64,000 bases of DNA from an uncultured Alphaproteobacteria bacterium (GTDB lineage: Bacteria; Pseudomonadota; Alphaproteobacteria; Micropepsales; Micropepsaceae): positions 357,734-421,733 of the forward strand of contig CAWDSJ010000001.1 of assembly GCA_963805005.1 (NCBI GenBank). Reading direction: 5' to 3'. Of the stretch, positions 12,850-42,028 are shown piece after piece. Both the position numbers and the translations under genes were made by a program. Under the pieces are notes generated by a model. The model was not told where the DNA came from. It did no database searches and worked only from the letters and a program-made list of their open reading frames with translations. Numbering within the stretch: the first letter of the stretch is position 1; the number at the start of each line of letters is the position of its first letter.

Positions 12850-13128
12850 GGCTGCGCGAGAACGCGAAACATTCTTCCTCCCCCGTGCGAAGCATGGGGG
12901 AGGTGTCTCCCGCGGCGTTAAGCCGGGGGAGAGGGGGGCATCGATTCCCGTTTCGCGCCATTGCGCGGCTGCGCATATCGGCAAGGTCGCAAATCATTGG
13001 GATGGCATCGTCGTAGCGCCCCCCTCCTCCTTCGCTGCTCTGCAGCTTCGGAGGACTTTCGAACAAACCCGCCGAAGCTCGCGGAGCGAAGGCGGGCCCT
13101 TCGCTGCGCGAACGGGGAAGGAAGAATA
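12850..13128. repeat. Gene-less derivative of the DUF559 palindromic element, carrying a 72-bp insertion
   Basis: 12850-13015 is an inverted homolog of about 17640-17825, including the codons for MICDLADMR. 13025-13096 is a separate double-hairpin insert. Confidence 0.8.
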
Positions 13129-13240: not shown

Positions 13241-13534
13241 ATGATCGACGACCGGAGCGAAAAAATCGCCGTCCGGCGAAAGCGTTTGCGCTTTCGCTGC
13301 CATCGGCGCGGCTTCAAGGAGGTGGATTTGATCTTTGCCACCTTCGCCGAGGCCAGCCTGGCCGAGCTGGACGAACCCGGCCTCGACCAGCTCGAAATGC
13401 TGCTGGAGGCGCCGGACCACGACGTCTTCGCCTGGTTGCAGGGCGAGGCGCCGGTGCCGGCGCCATTCGATAACGCCGTATTTGCGCAGATGAGATCGCT
13501 CTGCCAGCGTAAGAGTCCGACGTGGAACGTCTAA
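13241..13534 (+). CDS. sdhE: Succinate dehydrogenase assembly factor 2 (SdhE/Sdh5)
   Basis: RRKRLRFRCHRRGFKEVDLIF with the RG(x)KE flavinylation motif; immediately upstream of mfd. Confidence 0.87.
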   Translation: MIDDRSEKIAVRRKRLRFRCHRRGFKEVDLIFATFAEASLAELDEPGLDQLEMLLEAPDHDVFAWLQGEAPVPAPFDNAVFAQMRSLCQRKSPTWNV

Positions 13535-16500
13535 GCTATATCGCCCGTACCGAAGGCCATCTGACGGTCACCGGCGCGCCGGACGGCTTCGATGCCTATC
13601 TCGCCGCCGAGGCGGCCAGACGGCGGGCCGGGCTGGTGCTGTTTGTCGCCAGCGACGATCTGCGCGCGCAATCGGCACTGGACGCCGTCCGCTTCTTTGC
13701 GCCGGACATTCCGATGCTCTTTTTCCCGGCCTGGGATTGTCTTCCTTACGACCGCGTTTCGCCCAAGCCGGACATCGAGAGCCGCCGTTCGGCTACATTG
13801 TCCGCGCTTGCAAGGCGCACGAAAAAGTCCGGGCCGGCCGTCGTCGTGACGACCGTTAATGCCCTTGTCCAAAGGGTGCCGCCGCGTTCGGTGATTGCCG
13901 AATCGAGCTTCTATGCCCGCGTGGGCGGCACAGTGGAGCATGATCGTCTCGTCGACTATCTCGTCAAGAACGGCTATGCGCGGGCCGGCACGGTGCGCGA
14001 GCCGGGCGATTTCGCGCTGCGCGGCGGCATCATCGACCTCTGGCCGCCCGGTACGGAGGAGCCGCTGCGCCTCGATTTCTTCGGCGCGACGCTCGACGCC
14101 ATCCGGCGTTTCGATGCCGATACGCAGCTGTCCTCGGAGCAGATTGCCGAGATCGAATTGCTGGCGGCGAGCGAAGTGCAGCTCGACCAGGATTCGATCA
14201 GCCGTTTTCGCGCCGGTTATGTGGCGACGTTCGGCCCGGCCGGCGACGATCCGCTTTACGAAGCGGTGAGCGCCGGCCGCAAGCACCCCGGCATGGAGCA
14301 TTGGCTGCCGCTTTTCTATCCGCAGCTCGACACGCTTTTCGATTACCTGCACCACCCCTTGATATTCTTCTCGCACCAGGCCGAGGAAGCCAAGCAGGCG
14401 CGGTTCGAGCTCATCTCCGACTATTACAGCACGCGGCGGCAGTTCTTGCAGGCCGGCCGCGACGGCGCCGAGACGGTTGGAGCAGCGCCCTACAAGCCGC
14501 TGCCGCCCGAACGTCTCTACATCACCGACGGGGAATGGAAGGCGGCTATGTCCCATCGCGCCGTCCGCGAGCTTTCGCCGTTTCAGGCGCCGGAATCGAA
14601 GCATTCCGTCGATGCAGGCGGCAGGCAGGGCCGCGATTTTGCGCCCGAGCGGACACAAGGCCGCGTCAACGTTTTCGAAGCGGCCGCCGAGCACATCAAA
14701 TCCCTGCAGCAGGCAAAAAAGCGGGTGCTGGTGGCGGCGTGGAGCGAGGGCTCGGCCGAGCGTCTCGGCGGCGTGCTGTCCGATCACGGACTTGCCGCGA
14801 TGCGCCATGTCGAAGGCTGGCAGGATGCGGCTGCGCTGCATGGCGCCGCAATCGGCGTGGGGGTCCTGGGTCTCGAGCACGGTTTCGAGGCGGACGCTTT
14901 TGCAATCGTCTCCGAGCAGGACATCCTGGGCGACCGCATGGCGCGTCCGCGGGCGCGCTCCAAGCGGGCGCAAAATTTTCTGGCCGAGGCTTCCAGTCTC
15001 GTCCCCGGCGATCTGGTCACCCATATCGAGCACGGCATCGGCCGCTACACCGGCCTTCGCACCATCGACGTGGCCGGCGCTCCGCACGATTGCCTCGAGC
15101 TGCATTATGACGGCGGCAAGCTCTTTCTGCCGGTCGAAAACATCGAGCTCTTGACGCGCTACGGCTCGGACGAGGGAACCGCACAGCTCGACCGGCTGGG
15201 CGGTAGCGGATGGCAGCAGCGCAAGGCCCGCATGAAGGCGCGCGTGCGCGAGATTGCCGCCGAGCTGATTCGGATTGCCGCCGCGCGCCAGCTCAAATCC
15301 CTGCCCGCCGTGGAGGCGCCGCAGGGTCTCTACGACGAATTCTGCGCCCGCTTCCCGTGGGCCGAGACGGAGGATCAGGACCGCGCCATCGCCGAGACGG
15401 TGGAAGATCTGGCGAACGGCCGGCCGATGGACCGTCTGGTCTGCGGCGATGTGGGTTTCGGAAAGACCGAAGTCGCGTTGCGTGCGGCCTTTGTCGAGGC
15501 GATGTCGGGCATGCAAGTTGCCGTGGTGGTGCCGACGACCCTGCTGGCGCGTCAGCATTTCCGGACCTTTGCCGAGCGCTTTCGCGGCTTTCCGATAAAA
15601 GTGCGGCAGCTGTCGCGCTTCGTCGATGCCAAGGAGGCGCGCGAAACCAAAGCGGGCCTTGCGTCCGGCGACATCGATATCGTTGTGGGCACGCATGCGC
15701 TGCTTTCGAAGACCGTGAACTTCAAGCAGCTCGGCCTCGTCATCGTCGATGAAGAGCAGCATTTCGGCGTCGCCCACAAGGAGCGGCTGAAATCGCTCAA
15801 GGCGGATGTGCATGTGCTCACGCTGACGGCCACTCCCATTCCGCGGACGCTGCAATTGGCGCTTTCGGGTGTGCGCGACCTCTCGTTGATCACCACGCCG
15901 CCGATCGATCGCCTGGCGGTGCGCACCTTCGTCACGCCGTTCGATCCGCTCGTCGTGCGGGAAGCCTTGTTGCGCGAGCATTATCGCGGCGGACAGAGCT
16001 TCTATGTCTGCCCGCGCATTGCCGACCTGCATGAGGCCGAAGAATTCCTCAAGCAGACCGTCCCTGAAGTGAAGGTGGCGGTGGGTCACGGCCAGATGGC
16101 CGCAAGCCAGCTCGAAGACATCATGACGGCATTCTACGACGGCCGGGTGGACGTGCTGATCTCCACCAACATCGTGGAAAGCGGCCTCGATATCCCGAGC
16201 GCCAACACGCTGATCGTCCACCGTGCCGACATGTTCGGTCTGGCGCAGCTCTATCAGCTGCGCGGTCGCATCGGCCGTTCCAAGCAGCGCGCCTACGCCT
16301 ATCTCACGACGCCGGCAGACCGGAAACTCACCGAGACGGCCGAACGGCGGCTGCAGGTTCTGCAGTCGCTGGATCAGCTGGGCGCGGGGTTCTCGATTGC
16401 AAGCCACGATCTGGACATCCGCGGCGCCGGCAATCTTCTCGGAGAGGAGCAGTCCGGCCATGTGCGCGAAGTGGGCATCGAGCTTTATCAGGACATGCTC

Positions 16501-17010
16501 GAAGAAGCCGTTGCGCAGCTGCGTCAGGGCACGGCCGCGGAGGAGATCGGCGAGCAGTGGTCGCCGCAGATCAATATCGGCACGGCCGTGCTCATCCCGG
16601 AGGATTACGTCGGCGATCTCAATGTGCGCATGGCGCTCTACCGGCGGCTGGCCGGGCTGCAGGACCGCGCCGAGATCGACCGCTTCGCAGCCGAGCTGAT
16701 CGATCGCTTCGGGCGGTTGCCCGAAGAGGTCAAGCACCTGCTCGACATCGTGGCGATCAAGACGCTGTGCCGGGCGGCGTCGGTCGAGAAAATCGATGCC
16801 GGGCCCAAGGGCGCCACGCTCAGCTTTCGCAACAATGCGTTTCCCAATCCCGCAGGCCTGGTGCGTCTCATTGCCGAGCACCAGTCCACCATGAGGGTGC
16901 GGCCGGATCGGAAAGTCGTCATCGCGCGCGATTGGCCCTCGCCGGAAGAACGGCTGAAGGGCACGCATGTGTTCTTGGGCCAGCTCGCCAAGCTGGCCAA
17001 AGCGGCTTAG
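13522..17010 (+). CDS. mfd: Transcription-repair coupling factor
   Basis: PAWDCLPYDRVSP, RGGIIDLWP, GDLVTHIEHGIGRY, DRLVCGDVGFGKTEVA, GLAQLYQLRGRIGRS. Confidence 0.97.
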   Translation: MERLSYIARTEGHLTVTGAPDGFDAYLAAEAARRRAGLVLFVASDDLRAQSALDAVRFFAPDIPMLFFPAWDCLPYDRVSPKPDIESRRSATLSALARRTKKSGPAVVVTTVNALVQRVPPRSVIAESSFYARVGGTVEHDRLVDYLVKNGYARAGTVREPGDFALRGGIIDLWPPGTEEPLRLDFFGATLDAIRRFDADTQLSSEQIAEIELLAASEVQLDQDSISRFRAGYVATFGPAGDDPLYEAVSAGRKHPGMEHWLPLFYPQLDTLFDYLHHPLIFFSHQAEEAKQARFELISDYYSTRRQFLQAGRDGAETVGAAPYKPLPPERLYITDGEWKAAMSHRAVRELSPFQAPESKHSVDAGGRQGRDFAPERTQGRVNVFEAAAEHIKSLQQAKKRVLVAAWSEGSAERLGGVLSDHGLAAMRHVEGWQDAAALHGAAIGVGVLGLEHGFEADAFAIVSEQDILGDRMARPRARSKRAQNFLAEASSLVPGDLVTHIEHGIGRYTGLRTIDVAGAPHDCLELHYDGGKLFLPVENIELLTRYGSDEGTAQLDRLGGSGWQQRKARMKARVREIAAELIRIAAARQLKSLPAVEAPQGLYDEFCARFPWAETEDQDRAIAETVEDLANGRPMDRLVCGDVGFGKTEVALRAAFVEAMSGMQVAVVVPTTLLARQHFRTFAERFRGFPIKVRQLSRFVDAKEARETKAGLASGDIDIVVGTHALLSKTVNFKQLGLVIVDEEQHFGVAHKERLKSLKADVHVLTLTATPIPRTLQLALSGVRDLSLITTPPIDRLAVRTFVTPFDPLVVREALLREHYRGGQSFYVCPRIADLHEAEEFLKQTVPEVKVAVGHGQMAASQLEDIMTAFYDGRVDVLISTNIVESGLDIPSANTLIVHRADMFGLAQLYQLRGRIGRSKQRAYAYLTTPADRKLTETAERRLQVLQSLDQLGAGFSIASHDLDIRGAGNLLGEEQSGHVREVGIELYQDMLEEAVAQLRQGTAAEEIGEQWSPQINIGTAVLIPEDYVGDLNVRMALYRRLAGLQDRAEIDRFAAELIDRFGRLPEEVKHLLDIVAIKTLCRAASVEKIDAGPKGATLSFRNNAFPNPAGLVRLIAEHQSTMRVRPDRKVVIARDWPSPEERLKGTHVFLGQLAKLAKAA

Positions 17011-17016
17011 GCGTAA

Positions 17017-17063
17017 GCGCACGACATTCTTCCTCCCCCATGCTGCGCACGGGGGAGGAAGAA
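17017..17063. repeat. Palindromic REP (CTTCCTCCCCC family) after the mfd stop
   Basis: Perfect 13-bp stem TTCTTCCTCCCCC / GGGGGAGGAAGAA. 17017-17039 is the exact reverse complement of 17791-17813. Confidence 0.85.
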
Positions 17064-17177
17064 GCCGGGCGGCGCGTCGAGCCGGCGATCGTCAATCTGT
17101 TCGTAGGTCGCCTGGGCCGGGCCGTGACCCGGCGCGACAGCTTCAGGCTGTTCGGGCTTTAGCGCGATACCCACACT

Positions 17178-17802
17178 CTTCCTCCCCCGTGCGCAGCATG
17201 GGGGAGGTGGCGAGCTCCCCCGGCTTAAAGCCGGGGGAGCGAGACGGAGGGGGCACGACCGACAGGCATCGATACAGTTTCGGCAATCTCCGACGACGTC
17301 TTGCTCGCACGCTATCTTGCCCTTCGCTCAGGCAATCGCCATGGCATACGTCGTACCGAAAACGCTCGCTCGCGCACGCGAACTCCGGAAAAGGCTTACC
17401 GATGCCGAAACCATCCTATGGTTCCGTCTGCGAGGCCTTCAAGGCATTCGATTCCGGAGGCAGCATCCTGTCGGACCGTTCATCGCCGATTTTGCCTGCA
17501 CGCGCGCCCGTCTGATCGTGGAAATTGACGGCGCCACCCACGGAACCGAAGCCGAGCGGAGCTATGACGCACGCCGGGACTTGTTTCTCGGAAGCCGCGG
17601 CTGGCGGGTTGTACGAATTCCGAATGTGGACATCTATGAACGCTCCGACGACGTCGTCTCAATGATTTGCGACCTTGCCGATATGCGCATTCGCGCAAAG
17701 GTACGAGGCGGGATTTGATGCCCCCTCCGTCTCACTCCCCCGGCTTTAAGCCGGGGTCGCTCGACACCTCCCCCATTCGCTCTTGCGAACGGGGGAGGAA
17801 GA
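17178..17802. mobile_element. DUF559 gene bracketed by about 80-bp inverted double-hairpin arms (REPtron-like unit)
   Basis: Arms 17178-17255 and 17719-17802 are near-identical inverted copies, each with two hairpins. Mobility is inferred, not shown. Confidence 0.6.
17341..17718 (+). CDS. DUF559 (Vsr-like / PD-(D/E)XK) endonuclease
   Basis: ARELRKRLTDAETILW, FRRQHPVGPFIADFAC, LIVEIDGATH, RDLFLGSRGWRVVRIPN. Confidence 0.88.
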   Translation: MAYVVPKTLARARELRKRLTDAETILWFRLRGLQGIRFRRQHPVGPFIADFACTRARLIVEIDGATHGTEAERSYDARRDLFLGSRGWRVVRIPNVDIYERSDDVVSMICDLADMRIRAKVRGGI

Positions 17803-17954
17803 ATGTCGTGCGCTCTCGCGCGGCTCCATCCCTCCGGCGTCTCTCCGCACTCCGCATTGAGAAACGTGACACAAACGAACCCTAAAATGCGATTGCCCTG
17901 CTGTCTCGGGCTTATCGGATTGCACGCATGACTTCCAATGTGTATTCTTGCGCC

Positions 17955-18167
17955 ATGAAAGATCAGATCATCACTCGCGATCCGGACGTCATGGGTGGAA
18001 CCGCCGTGTTCCGCGGCACGCGCGTCCCTGTGCAGACGCTTCTCGACTATCTGGAGGCAGGCGACTCGATCGACGAGTTCCTTGCGGGCTTTCCCAACGT
18101 CACCCGCGCACAGGTGGTCGCCTTCCTGGAAAGCGCAACCGACCGGTTGGTCGAATCGGTTTCGTGA
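17955..18167 (+). CDS. DUF433 antitoxin
   Basis: IITRDPDVMGGTAVFRGTRVPVQTLLDYLEAGDSIDEFLAGFP. Confidence 0.88.
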   Translation: MKDQIITRDPDVMGGTAVFRGTRVPVQTLLDYLEAGDSIDEFLAGFPNVTRAQVVAFLESATDRLVESVS

Positions 18168-18662: not shown

Positions 18663-19940
18663 ATGAAAGTCTTTTGGTCGTGGCAGTCCGATACACCAGG
18701 AAAGATCGGACGCCATTTTGTCCGCGACGCCTTGCAGGCGGCGATCGAGCAGCTGAAGGAAGCGCCCGAGGTCGAGGAGCCGACAGAGCGCGAAACGCGA
18801 TCGGCAGTGCATCTCGATCAAGACCGCAAAGGGATTTCGGGTAGCCCTGATTTGGCCCGAGTGATCCTCGAGAAAATCGAAGCTGCCGCGGTCTTCGTCG
18901 CGGATGTGACGGCCGTGGGCTTTGTTTCAAACGAGAAGCAAGGGCCGGCGAAGAAGCTCATCAATCCCAATGTCGCAATAGAGCTTGGGTACGCTCTTCA
19001 TGCCCTCACCGACCGCGCGCTTCTCATGGTGATGAACGAACACTACGGCAGCCGCGCTGACCTTCCTTTCGACCTGCAATCTAAAGCAGGCCCGCTTATG
19101 TATTCCTTGGCTCCTGACGCCGACAGACAGACAGTCGCAGCAGCATCCCGGACACTCGCCGCGCGCCTCAAGGAGGCTCTAGAGCCGTTCATTGTGCAAA
19201 GAGTTGAGCAAATCCGCCAAGAACATCCGTTTCCCGAGGCACCGGCCAAAGACGGGCCAGCGAGATTTCGCGGCCCAGGAGAACCAATAGGCACATTGAA
19301 AGACTTGCTGCCGTTCGGCCCCAATGCCGGGAAGAGCATCACGCTTCGTCCTGGCCCGGCGACATGGCTTCGTCTGATGCCCACCTTCGATCGCGGTCAG
19401 ACCTGGACGGCCGAGGAATTACAGGAGGTATCCCGCAGAGGAAATCTCCCCTTGCAGCCGTTCGTGTGGAACACTTTCCGCACCGTGCGCGGCGCGGACG
19501 GCATCGGCTGTTGCGATCTTCCCGGCGATGCACAGGAAACGAACTCTTTAGCCTTTGCGTTCGAAACGGGTGAAGTATGGGCGATCGATACCTGGGTATT
19601 GGGCTCGCATCCGGCCGAAATTTTTGTCGGCGAAATCGAGCGAGGGTGGCTCGATCGATTCGGGGGCTATGCGGCGTTCCTCCGCGGCCTCAAGATAGAA
19701 CCTCCTTATCGTTGGATCGCTGGTATGGCAGGCGTGAACCACTGGCGCCTGCGATACCCTCTCGCGCGAGGTCAGATGCAACTTGCCGAATGGTCAGGCC
19801 CGGAATGCCTAGCCGAGCAAATTGTGGTCGACGGCACCTTCGCCGGCAAAGAGACGCCGCTTGCCGCGCTGCTGCCGTTTTTCGAGGCGATCTATAAGAG
19901 ATGCGGCATGCGCCGCCCCGACTACTTGCCGCGAGAATGA
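18663..19940 (+). CDS. Two-domain protein: N-terminal TIR/nucleoside-deoxyribosyltransferase-like domain plus uncharacterised C-terminal domain; candidate defence protein
   Basis: VFWSWQSD, ILEKIEAAAVFVADVT, NPNVAIELGYA (putative catalytic Glu), LPFDL. Confidence 0.6.
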   Translation: MKVFWSWQSDTPGKIGRHFVRDALQAAIEQLKEAPEVEEPTERETRSAVHLDQDRKGISGSPDLARVILEKIEAAAVFVADVTAVGFVSNEKQGPAKKLINPNVAIELGYALHALTDRALLMVMNEHYGSRADLPFDLQSKAGPLMYSLAPDADRQTVAAASRTLAARLKEALEPFIVQRVEQIRQEHPFPEAPAKDGPARFRGPGEPIGTLKDLLPFGPNAGKSITLRPGPATWLRLMPTFDRGQTWTAEELQEVSRRGNLPLQPFVWNTFRTVRGADGIGCCDLPGDAQETNSLAFAFETGEVWAIDTWVLGSHPAEIFVGEIERGWLDRFGGYAAFLRGLKIEPPYRWIAGMAGVNHWRLRYPLARGQMQLAEWSGPECLAEQIVVDGTFAGKETPLAALLPFFEAIYKRCGMRRPDYLPRE

Positions 19941-41812: not shown

Positions 41813-41842
41813 CCCGGTTCTCCTTTGCGGATAAGAGCGATG

Positions 41843-42028
41843 CCCGCCTCCCTTTGGGGAGGCGGGCGAGCCTGCGTAGCGTCGGCTGCCGATTACAGCC
41901 CGCGAGCCGGGTGGGGGCGGAAAAACATTGCGAGCATCTGTCGATGCGTCGCGATTCTCCCCACCCGAAAAATCCCGCTACGCTTCGCTCCGCCGGGGAT
42001 TTTTCGGCCTCCCCGCTGGGAAGGCGGG
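41843..42028. repeat. REPIN-like element of the CCTCCCC/GGGAGG type
   Basis: CCCGCCTCCC-TTTG-GGGAGGCGGG hairpin; CGGGTGGGG / CCCCACCCG arms; GAAAAATCCC...GGGATTTTTC hairpin; terminal CCTCCCC..GGGAAGGCGGG. Confidence 0.7.

Follow-up and report, generated by a model that had tools for sequence, protein, structure and literature searches.

We analyzed a 64,000-nt stretch of the contig CAWDSJ010000001.1 (positions 357,734–421,733 of the forward strand, assembly GCA_963805005.1), hereafter called the window. At positions 17175–17804 of the window, a gene for a small nuclease of the DUF559 family is enclosed by two inverted repeat units that fold on themselves, and the gene together with its ends very probably constitutes a mobile cassette. 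The cassette decays by internal deletion, leaving gene-less pairs that resemble miniature inverted-repeat transposable elements (MITEs) and solo units, which are dispersed genome-wide. Taking the explanation as a whole, we lean towards a selfish cassette, of which the nuclease acts on its own ends and the copying is carried out by host repair in a homing-like manner.

Organization of the DUF559 cassette

The cassette spans 630 bp, and DUF559 is its sole gene. Its parts, with window coordinates, are as follows.

17175–17255, + strand: left end unit, type 1 (nhmmer E 5.8e-19; double-hairpin fold z −4.95), with terminus ACTCTTCC, C arm 17181–17188, loop/hairpin A, G arm 17200–17207, hairpin B 17215–17239 and mirror G arm GGAGGGGG 17246–17253
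17256–17340, + strand: leader of 85 nt from the left unit to the start codon, 51% identical to that of the paralog d2773
17341–17718, + strand: open reading frame (ORF) of 125 aa for a DUF559/Vsr-like PD-(D/E)XK nuclease (PF04480, E 3.3e-30)
17719–17804, − strand: right end unit, type 1, an inverted copy of the left unit (nhmmer E 5.4e-26; fold z −6.2), with CCCCCTCC 17721–17728, hairpin B′ 17735–17760, C arm 17767–17774, G arm 17791–17798 and terminus GGAAGAAT

The likeliest start codon is the ATG at 17341, and the stop codon TGA (17716–17718) directly adjoins the right unit, which starts at 17719. The initial annotation described double-hairpin arms of about 80 bp around the ORF and, outside or overlapping them, a perfect inverted pair of 23 nt (17017–17039/17791–17813). 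We recover both. The core inverted arms (17198–17255/17719–17776) are 58 nt long and 93% complementary, and together with the outer hairpins they extend to 17175–17255/17719–17804. With folding computed as Watson-Crick pairing only, both arms form double hairpins as single-stranded DNA (−31.8 and −28.7 kcal/mol; z −4.95 and −6.2), and none of the 200 shuffles equals them. The outer pair extends to 29 nt at 93% (17011–17039/17791–17819, inverted repeat I3). It is made up of two components, a solo hairpin at 17026–17063 and a short inverted fragment of the repeat that follows the cassette.

A sigma-70-like promoter was searched for in the leader, and none was found. A 13-nt direct repeat, CTCCGACGACGTC (D8), has one copy in the leader (17288–17300) and a second copy at 17643–17655. 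No Rfam family matches in the region of the window. We also notice that the DUF559 frame is open upstream across the whole left unit (17147–17340), giving an open frame of 196 aa. The same is seen in the paralog d1317, not in d2773.

Architecture of the end units

A profile search of the whole genome (4.42 Mb in 4 contigs, labelled G000) provides the genome-wide map of the repeats that the initial annotation had called for. The units are dispersed and fall into two types. Type 1 gives 78 nhmmer matches, some of them overlapping on both strands, and 62 full-length units, which include three DUF559 pairs (603–631 bp), 14 gene-less convergent pairs (140–370 bp) and about 20 solos. The 30 units of type 2 comprise two DUF559 pairs, the remainder being gene-less pairs and solos. 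Solo units number about 35 overall, roughly 20 of type 1 and the others of type 2. Where convergent units lie less than 1 kb apart, the only protein encoded between them is DUF559. In longer intervals we find housekeeping genes (leuD-like and others) or a unit interrupted by an IS5-type transposase. We considered other cargo in the close pairs and rejected it, as none lies between convergent pairs less than 1 kb apart.

Each unit of approximately 85 nt consists of a C arm, a G arm and a mirror G arm, together with two variable hairpin loops. The type-1 arms CCTCCCCC/GGGGGAGG/GGAGGGGG could be parsed in 59 of the 62 full-length units, among which the three arms are nearly invariant (CTTCCTCCCCC, GGGGGAGG, CGGAGGGGG). 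The third arm matches the consensus in most parsed units and carries a one-letter variant in a few. Loop A occurs in three stem-extending variants. Hairpin B is represented by many unrelated sequences, yet it folds beyond shuffles (z < −2) in 66% of the units. The arms are thus conserved while the variable parts are kept foldable, which suggests that a folded structure is what is recognized.

The third arm mirrors the G arm and is not a direct repeat of it. Among 89 informative units across taxa, 50 favor the mirror arrangement, 12 the direct one, and 27 are tied. A-to-T replacements recur in the third arm; these are the replacements permitted in purine-motif triplexes. For the type-2 units, a second hairpin was considered and rejected, as only the first hairpin beats shuffles. 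The left and right units within one element can bear different hairpin-B modules, and the elements are therefore mosaics.

Several further loci of these repeats were noticed. One type-2 unit is split by an insertion of approximately 1.47 kb (C1:2632718–2634278). A truncated type-1 unit lies beside an IS5-family transposase gene (C1:1436394–1437946), an instance of insertion sequence (IS) elements landing in these repeats. A 7.6-kb segment (C1:1302230–1309874) is bounded by long inverted repeats containing type-2 units and their flanks, and it may be invertible or duplicated.

Nuclease clades and their cognate ends

The genome carries six DUF559 genes, five of which lie exactly between inverted end units. 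Clade 1 consists of the window copy, d2773 and d1317, which share 72–93% amino acid identity. Clade 2 consists of d815 and d2653, which are 94% identical, and the identity between the two clades is only 40–44%. Clade 1 is associated with type-1 ends (ATTCTTCCTCCCCC, loop A, GGGGGAGGTG, hairpin B, GAGACGGAGGGGGCA), and clade 2 with type-2 ends (CCCGCCTCCCCC, loop, GGGGAGGCCGG ... CCGGGTGGGGG). The check suggested by the initial annotation, that each paralog should have its own cognate repeat variant, is positive at the level of these clades. The end-unit and clade data likewise support its proposal that the DUF559 gene is embedded in cognate repeat ends. Gene and ends behave as a single evolutionary unit.

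Insertion sites in related genomes

We compared the cassette sites with the corresponding sites in relatives, reading the filled and empty junctions by eye; a MAFFT alignment is uninformative here owing to the large insertion. At the site of d815 (type 2), the intergenic gap measures 760 nt in this genome versus 95–160 nt, free of hairpins, in relatives, and the site is empty in six of them (G008, G010, G013, G003, G004 and G005). The site of d1317 (type 1) lies between convergent genes, with a gap of 945 nt versus approximately 0–15 nt in relatives, and it is empty in two (G005 and G003). There the cassette begins 4 nt past the stop codon of one gene, and a solo hairpin abuts the stop codon of the convergent gene. 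These cassettes are therefore lineage-specific insertions into tiny intergenic gaps after stop codons. Variation of the site among relatives, which the initial annotation had asked about, is thus seen at these two paralogous cassettes.

The window cassette itself lies directly downstream of mfd. In relatives at the species level, mfd is only about 80% identical, and it is followed by other genes and another MITE family. In the only public runs, two low-coverage metagenomes, a peat-metagenome contig that is 94–96% identical to the end of mfd diverges immediately past the stop codon. The other MITE family, with ends TTGTCATGGCCCGC...GCGGGCCATGACAA, has 27 copies in this genome and occupies the spot after mfd in the relatives L002 (1360–1500) and L004 (1360–1490).

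Gene-less derivatives and the MITE-X repeat

Several gene-less pairs align to the final ~78 nt of the ORF plus the right unit, and the copy at C1:3049566 retains about 215 nt of the ORF. These remnants mean that such pairs descend from a gene-bearing form. At least five gene-less pairs share a common junction directly after the mirror G arm (C1:339794, C1:3772880, C1:2043547, C3:11636 and window 12871–13127). The simplest reading is a single internal deletion, after which the shortened element probably multiplied, as a MITE does from its autonomous parent. The complete elements share the termini C-ATTCTTCC...GGAAGAAT-G.

One of the five lies in the window itself.

12871–13127, − strand: gene-less type-1 element of 257 nt, inverted relative to the cassette, which keeps the final ~80 nt of a DUF559 ORF

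A gene-less element had been named near this place, at 12850, in the initial annotation; it proves to be real. Inside its hairpin A, at 13025–13096, we notice a foreign double-hairpin mini-element of 72 nt (CCCGCC...GGAGGAGG). Related copies lie next to C1:1436394 and, at C1:335xxx, within the degenerate element. This mini-element seems to target the C/G arms of such hairpins.

A second repeat, MITE-X, is closely associated with type-1 units. It is approximately 175 nt long, with 17-nt terminal inverted repeats (TIRs) GGGCAATCGCATTTGGG/CCCAAATGCGATTGCCC, and in every case a type-1 hairpin, unit or cassette forms its centre.

Right halves: window 17805–17900; C1:2773755–2773865; C1:335574–335669
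Left halves: C1:2774495–2774594; C1:1445278; C1:2571887; C1:335893; C1:2383135

The left half adjoins the type-1 left terminus at five loci with a constant junction, and the interior at this junction varies. It can be a full cassette (d2773), a degenerate gene-less element (C1:335xxx), a solo hairpin only (C1:1445xxx), or a solo hairpin followed by a spacer and a left unit, as in the window layout (C1:2571xxx). Such varied interiors are the expected residue of repeated conversion or deletion between units, and they do not give the direction of change.

The DUF559 protein

The ORF in the window matches PF04480 with 104.6 bits (cut-off 20.6; E 3.3e-30) over model positions 4–105 of 109. The nearest solved structure by sequence is PDB 3hrl (E 2e-17), a structural-genomics 'endonuclease-like protein' of which the function is not known. 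An AlphaFold2 model (predicted local distance difference test 78.7) was compared with known structures by Foldseek. It retrieves 3hrl (E 6.8e-7), the catalytic domain of I-Bth0305I (3r3p, E 5.9e-4), Vsr (1cw0, E 1.2e-2) and also the nuclease domain of PvuRts1I. The protein is thus predicted by the model to adopt a Vsr/restriction-endonuclease-like fold. The residues D50, E61, D63, H67, D76 and R79 are invariant in all six paralogs and are putative active-site residues. The ratio of nonsynonymous to synonymous substitutions between paralogs is 0.12–0.22 (0.22 for the window copy and d2773), which places them under purifying selection; every copy has therefore been kept as a working protein.

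Occurrence across the genus and other phyla

Within the genus, genomes hold between 0 and 10 DUF559 copies. In other species of the genus, bracketing inverted arms are present at 13 of 16 loci, where they form C-run/G-run hairpins of differing sequence. We further scored inverted repeats (+1 per match, −2 per mismatch, threshold 14) around 104 DUF559 loci, including 80 from Alpha-, Beta- and Gammaproteobacteria, Chloroflexota, Planctomycetota, Myxococcota and others. A bracketing repeat with a score of at least 14 is found at 69 of them (66%), in contrast to three of 393 displaced controls (0.8%). The window locus stands outside this set; by the same scoring, its arms (58 nt, 93%) would reach an estimated score of roughly 45. 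A low-scoring DUF559 subfamily in relatives (46–59 bits) is without bracketing repeats and may be the host-type version.

Y1 transposase genes of the genome

The initial annotation had proposed a REP/REPIN-like system (repetitive extragenic palindromes and their inverted doublets) without the usual REP-associated tyrosine transposase (RAYT). The genome has six matches to PF01797 (Y1, an HUH transposase family), and none of these genes has units on both sides, which agrees with the non-RAYT part of that proposal. At C1:1445459–1446133, a Y1 gene has a symmetric solo hairpin approximately 60 nt upstream, which belongs to a MITE-X left half with further copies elsewhere. Three Y1 genes have another palindrome, GCGGACGAGGACGTCCGC, approximately 50 nt downstream, which occurs in 21 copies in the genome. 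This palindrome and the three genes are probably the genome's real RAYT/REP pair. A RAYT as the partner of the units was accordingly rejected: no Y1 gene is flanked on both sides, and Y1 genes have a palindrome of their own.

These three Y1_Tnp (RAYT-like) genes, each followed by the palindrome, lie at C1:1635522–1637149 and C1:1648980–1649552. Two of them are in tandem, and all three have N-terminal WERGRP-type repeats.

Proposed mechanism and competing explanations

In the account towards which we lean, the nuclease would recognize the folded end units, whether as a cruciform, a hairpin or an intrastrand triplex, and would nick or cut there. Where such a break falls in a gene-less or solo unit, a gene-bearing copy would act as the repair template and the ~85-nt units would provide the homology arms, and the copying would thus be performed by host recombination or repair as in homing. 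The same breaks may drive the deletions, mosaics and rearrangements at these repeats. To our knowledge, a PD-(D/E)XK hydrolase forms no covalent intermediate and is incapable of the cut-and-rejoin chemistry of a RAYT. Since such an enzyme cannot rejoin DNA, we favor the homing-like route over transposase chemistry. This route accounts for copying into existing units, not for the first arrival of a unit at a new site.

In favor of this account speak the bracketing of DUF559 genes, the co-variation of clades and end types, DUF559 as the sole cargo, the ORF remnants in gene-less pairs, the purifying selection, the conserved arms with their foldable hairpins, the empty sites and the predicted fold. 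Several observations weigh against it. That the nuclease acts on its own end units is a step that we infer, and the co-variation of gene and ends is also expected if the gene is a mere passenger. The sixth paralog, d2562, has no bracket, and only a gene-less pair lies just downstream of it. The genus yielded no close orthologue of d2562; the best relatives reach 61% identity, and a bracket is present at three of the four that were scored. Beyond the first hairpin, type-2 units fold no better than shuffles (z −0.3). There are no recent copies: identity reaches 92.9% in the best gene-less pair and 87.6% between the window cassette and d2773, its nearest paralog, and the leaders of these two closest cassettes are only 51% identical. 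Among 17 complete elements, a target-site duplication longer than 2 bp was looked for, and none was found. The 13-nt direct repeat (17288–17300/17643–17655) spans the region that is lost in gene-less copies, and one metagenome contig has exactly that deletion; it is possible that the common junction arises partly from recurrent deletion.

The distribution in the genus speaks partly for the account and partly against it. In its favor, across 25 genomes the number of CCTCCCC hairpins correlates with that of strong DUF559 genes (Spearman 0.74, p 2e-5; median 42 hairpins with a DUF559 gene and 4.5 without, Mann-Whitney p 0.0012), in a comparison that ignores phylogeny and assembly fragmentation. 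Against it, the relative G008, whose genome is complete, contains 41 of these hairpins and lacks a DUF559 gene, and a search of G008 for remnants of the DUF559 ORF found none. Units can therefore persist without the gene, and they may also spread without it.

We weighed a different course of events, in which the units are spread by something else, such as host replication or recombination at folded DNA, or another transposase, and DUF559 rides inside them or homes into pre-existing ones, adding nothing to their dispersal. It accommodates G008, as well as the fact that solo and gene-less units are far more numerous than gene-bearing ones. The MITE-X junction, with its full cassette, degenerate element or solo hairpin, fits homing into a hairpin, and the nearest structural neighbor with a characterized function is a homing endonuclease (the top match, 3hrl, has no known function). 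However, no other mobility gene lies between unit pairs, the ORF remnants imply that at least those gene-less pairs descend from gene-bearing copies, and two unrelated end types, each with its own nuclease clade, are present in one genome. The empty sites hold no landing-pad hairpin, although at 70–78% identity this is a weak argument. We therefore regard this course of events as unlikely, while taking it seriously. It is improbable that DUF559 serves the host as a Vsr-like repair or surveillance nuclease, beside which the repeats would be unrelated REP-like terminators or stabilizers. Such a role has been proposed for Caulobacter VsrA, which links DUF559 to an SOS response at unmethylated YGCCGGCR (PMC12907096). 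The purifying selection on the paralogs and the position of units directly past stop codons, like REPs, would suit it. Yet the distribution is patchy, at 0–10 copies per genome in one genus, the cassettes are lineage-specific insertions, and gene and ends co-vary. The bracket is also exact in five of six paralogs, with the stop codon abutting the unit, and it recurs at 66% of the cross-phyla loci versus 0.8% of controls. A separate, low-scoring and unbracketed DUF559 subfamily may be the one with the host function.

Long inverted arms could also serve as a programmed switch that flips the enclosed gene. 'DUF559 domain-containing protein' is enriched 14-fold among predicted targets of programmed inversion (PMC9881135), and in one metagenome contig 17213 is linked to 17733 on the opposite strand. 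We consider a switch highly improbable: no invertase is nearby, the same arms are also found in about 35 solo units and in 14 gene-less pairs of type 1, and the ORF with its leader lies wholly inside the arms, so that a flip changes nothing obvious. The published enrichment is an expected by-product of TIRs. Finally, the hairpins might be ordinary REPs kept by a Y1 transposase-like gene of this genome, given its six PF01797 matches and the Y1 gene with a solo hairpin ~60 nt upstream. This is extremely improbable, as no Y1 gene has units on both sides, the lone hairpin beside a Y1 gene sits in a MITE-X left half repeated elsewhere, and three Y1 genes carry the palindrome GCGGACGAGGACGTCCGC instead.

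Surroundings of the cassette in the window

The remaining features around the cassette, and one more distant unit, are as follows.

13522–17010, + strand: mfd, transcription-repair coupling factor, the upstream host gene (Pfam TRCF, DEAD, Helicase_C, UvrB_inter, CarD_TRCF_RID), with stop codon TAG 17008–17010
17011–17025, no strand assigned: short inverted fragment matching the start of the MITE-X right half, which is the outer part of the 23–29-nt inverted repeat I3
17026–17063, no strand assigned: symmetric solo hairpin (ATTCTTCCTCCCCC, loop, GGGGGAGGAAGAA; DNA fold −16.9 kcal/mol, z −5.3)
17064–17174, no strand assigned: spacer of 111 nt from the solo hairpin to the cassette, homologous to the spacer C1:2571790–2571856 as read from the sequences
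17805–17900, no strand assigned: X-right, the right half of MITE-X, which adjoins type-1 termini at three loci
41841–41916, + strand: solo type-2 end unit (nhmmer E 6.2e-8, model positions 2–81)

In the solo hairpin upstream of the cassette, two outer termini are joined across a single loop, which is the reverse complement of the left-unit loop. The hairpin forms a 31-nt inverted repeat with 17177–17207 at 100% (I2). The order of solo hairpin, spacer and left unit recurs at C1:2571700–2571975. The last feature was placed at 41843 in the initial annotation as a hairpin element without a gene, and it turns out to be a genuine solo unit of type 2.

Immediately downstream of the cassette is a DUF433 gene (17928–18167, E 1.3e-20). 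Members of the DUF433 family frequently make up half of a toxin-antitoxin-like pair. The ORF of 425 aa at 18663–19940 has no Pfam match.

Comparison with known repeat and nuclease systems

In sequence architecture, the ends of the cassette belong with the BoxC/PIT/TMECO intrastrand-triplex repeats (Holder et al. 2015, PMC4666352; Hoyne et al. 2000, cited there), for which triplex formation here is a prediction. The layout is the same: a C-rich arm, a complementary G-rich arm, and a third G-rich arm mirroring the second. Both kinds of repeat are intergenic, highly conserved, multi-copy and associated with rearrangements. Many DUF559 flanks in other phyla are near-literal TMECO matches, e.g. CCCTCTCCCC-N-GGGGAGAGGG-TTA-GGGTGAGGGG. 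The units of this genome, however, do not fit the published pattern CCCTCNCCC N3-6 GGGNGAGGG N3 GGGNGAGGG, as the arm sequences differ and the loops are longer. Loop 1 measures 10–17 nt, and loop 2 measures 25–45 nt with a hairpin of its own, compared with 3–6 and 3 nt in TMECO. Unlike the published TMECO, the inverted units here have a DUF559 gene between them. The TMECO study found no associated mobility function or protein partner (PMC4666352).

We tentatively propose a broader picture, in which DUF559 cassettes may form an unrecognized class of selfish elements whose only protein, a minimal Vsr-like nuclease, acts on triplex or cruciform ends and leaves the copying to host repair. The BoxC/PIT/TMECO repeats may then be the ends and decayed remains of this class, which would constitute a second, independent nuclease-repeat partnership beside REP/RAYT. 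Our literature search found no paper linking DUF559 to repeats and no description of such a cassette. BoxC/PIT/TMECO-type repeats were first described in the 1990s; several hundred genomes contain them, in thousands of copies, and they are associated with genome instability. DUF559 is a very large family without an established role. If the proposal is true, an orphan repeat class gains an enzyme and an orphan protein family gains a substrate, and the view that only HUH transposases maintain REP-like repeats needs widening. This genome is a good test bed, with two cognate nuclease/end pairs in one cell that allow specificity swaps. It also offers gene-less derivatives with one deletion junction and defined empty sites in relatives. 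The nuclease may find use as a structure-specific DNA tool.

REP/REPIN-RAYT systems were reportedly described by Nunvar in 2010 and by Bertels and Rainey in 2011. The DUF559 cassette is a functional analogue of these systems built on an unrelated enzyme, and it is not a member of them. Both have folded palindromic repeats that are dispersed intergenically just past genes and form inverted doublets. In both, a small nuclease-type gene lies between copies of its own repeat, gene clades within a genome have separate cognate repeats, turnover is slow, and the repeats outlast loss of the gene. On the other hand, the DUF559 enzyme is a PD-(D/E)XK hydrolase and not an HUH/Y1 transposase, and its gene occurs in several copies per genome. 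The units have approximately 85 nt, three arms and two loops, whereas REPs are single hairpins of 20–40 nt. Of the REP/REPIN-like system put forward in the initial annotation, the part that stands is a gene flanked by its own, clade-specific repeats. A REP/REPIN system in the strict sense does not stand, as three-arm units of ~85 nt bound a TIR-type cassette. Of the two outcomes that the initial annotation gave as counting against its proposal, we observed neither.

As in class II transposons and their MITEs, we observe TIRs, lineage-specific insertions, and internally deleted copies with a common junction and a piece of the ORF. Unlike class II elements, the cassette contains no DDE, serine, tyrosine or HUH transposase, its only ORF being DUF559, and DUF559-type elements have no target-site duplication longer than 2 bp. 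Moreover, the TIRs of the cassette are folded modular units that also occur singly.

Caulobacter VsrA (CCNA_02930) carries DUF559 and triggers the SOS response if YGCCGGCR sites lack methylation (PMC12907096). It has been read as a mismatch-repair nuclease linked to the solitary methyltransferase ScmA, which methylates cytosine, and the repeat context is not reported (PMC12907096). VsrA is likewise an alphaproteobacterial DUF559 protein, and it comes with genetic evidence of DNA damage in vivo.

The Vsr-like 'EDxHD' homing endonuclease I-Bth0305I (PDB 3r3p) has the same catalytic fold as that predicted for the DUF559 protein (template modeling score 0.78–0.80, target-normalized; Foldseek E 6e-4). 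Its additional DNA-binding region is, we presume, absent from the DUF559 protein of the window. Homing endonucleases of this kind lead a selfish lifestyle with filled and empty sites, as the DUF559 cassettes do, and they are copied via host repair, as we propose for the cassette. Unlike them, the cassette lies outside any intron or intein and has no conserved host gene as its target: DUF559 cassettes are intergenic, and the flanks of different copies have no common sequence. The cassette further differs from I-Bth0305I in having long inverted ends of its own and in leaving MITE-like derivatives.

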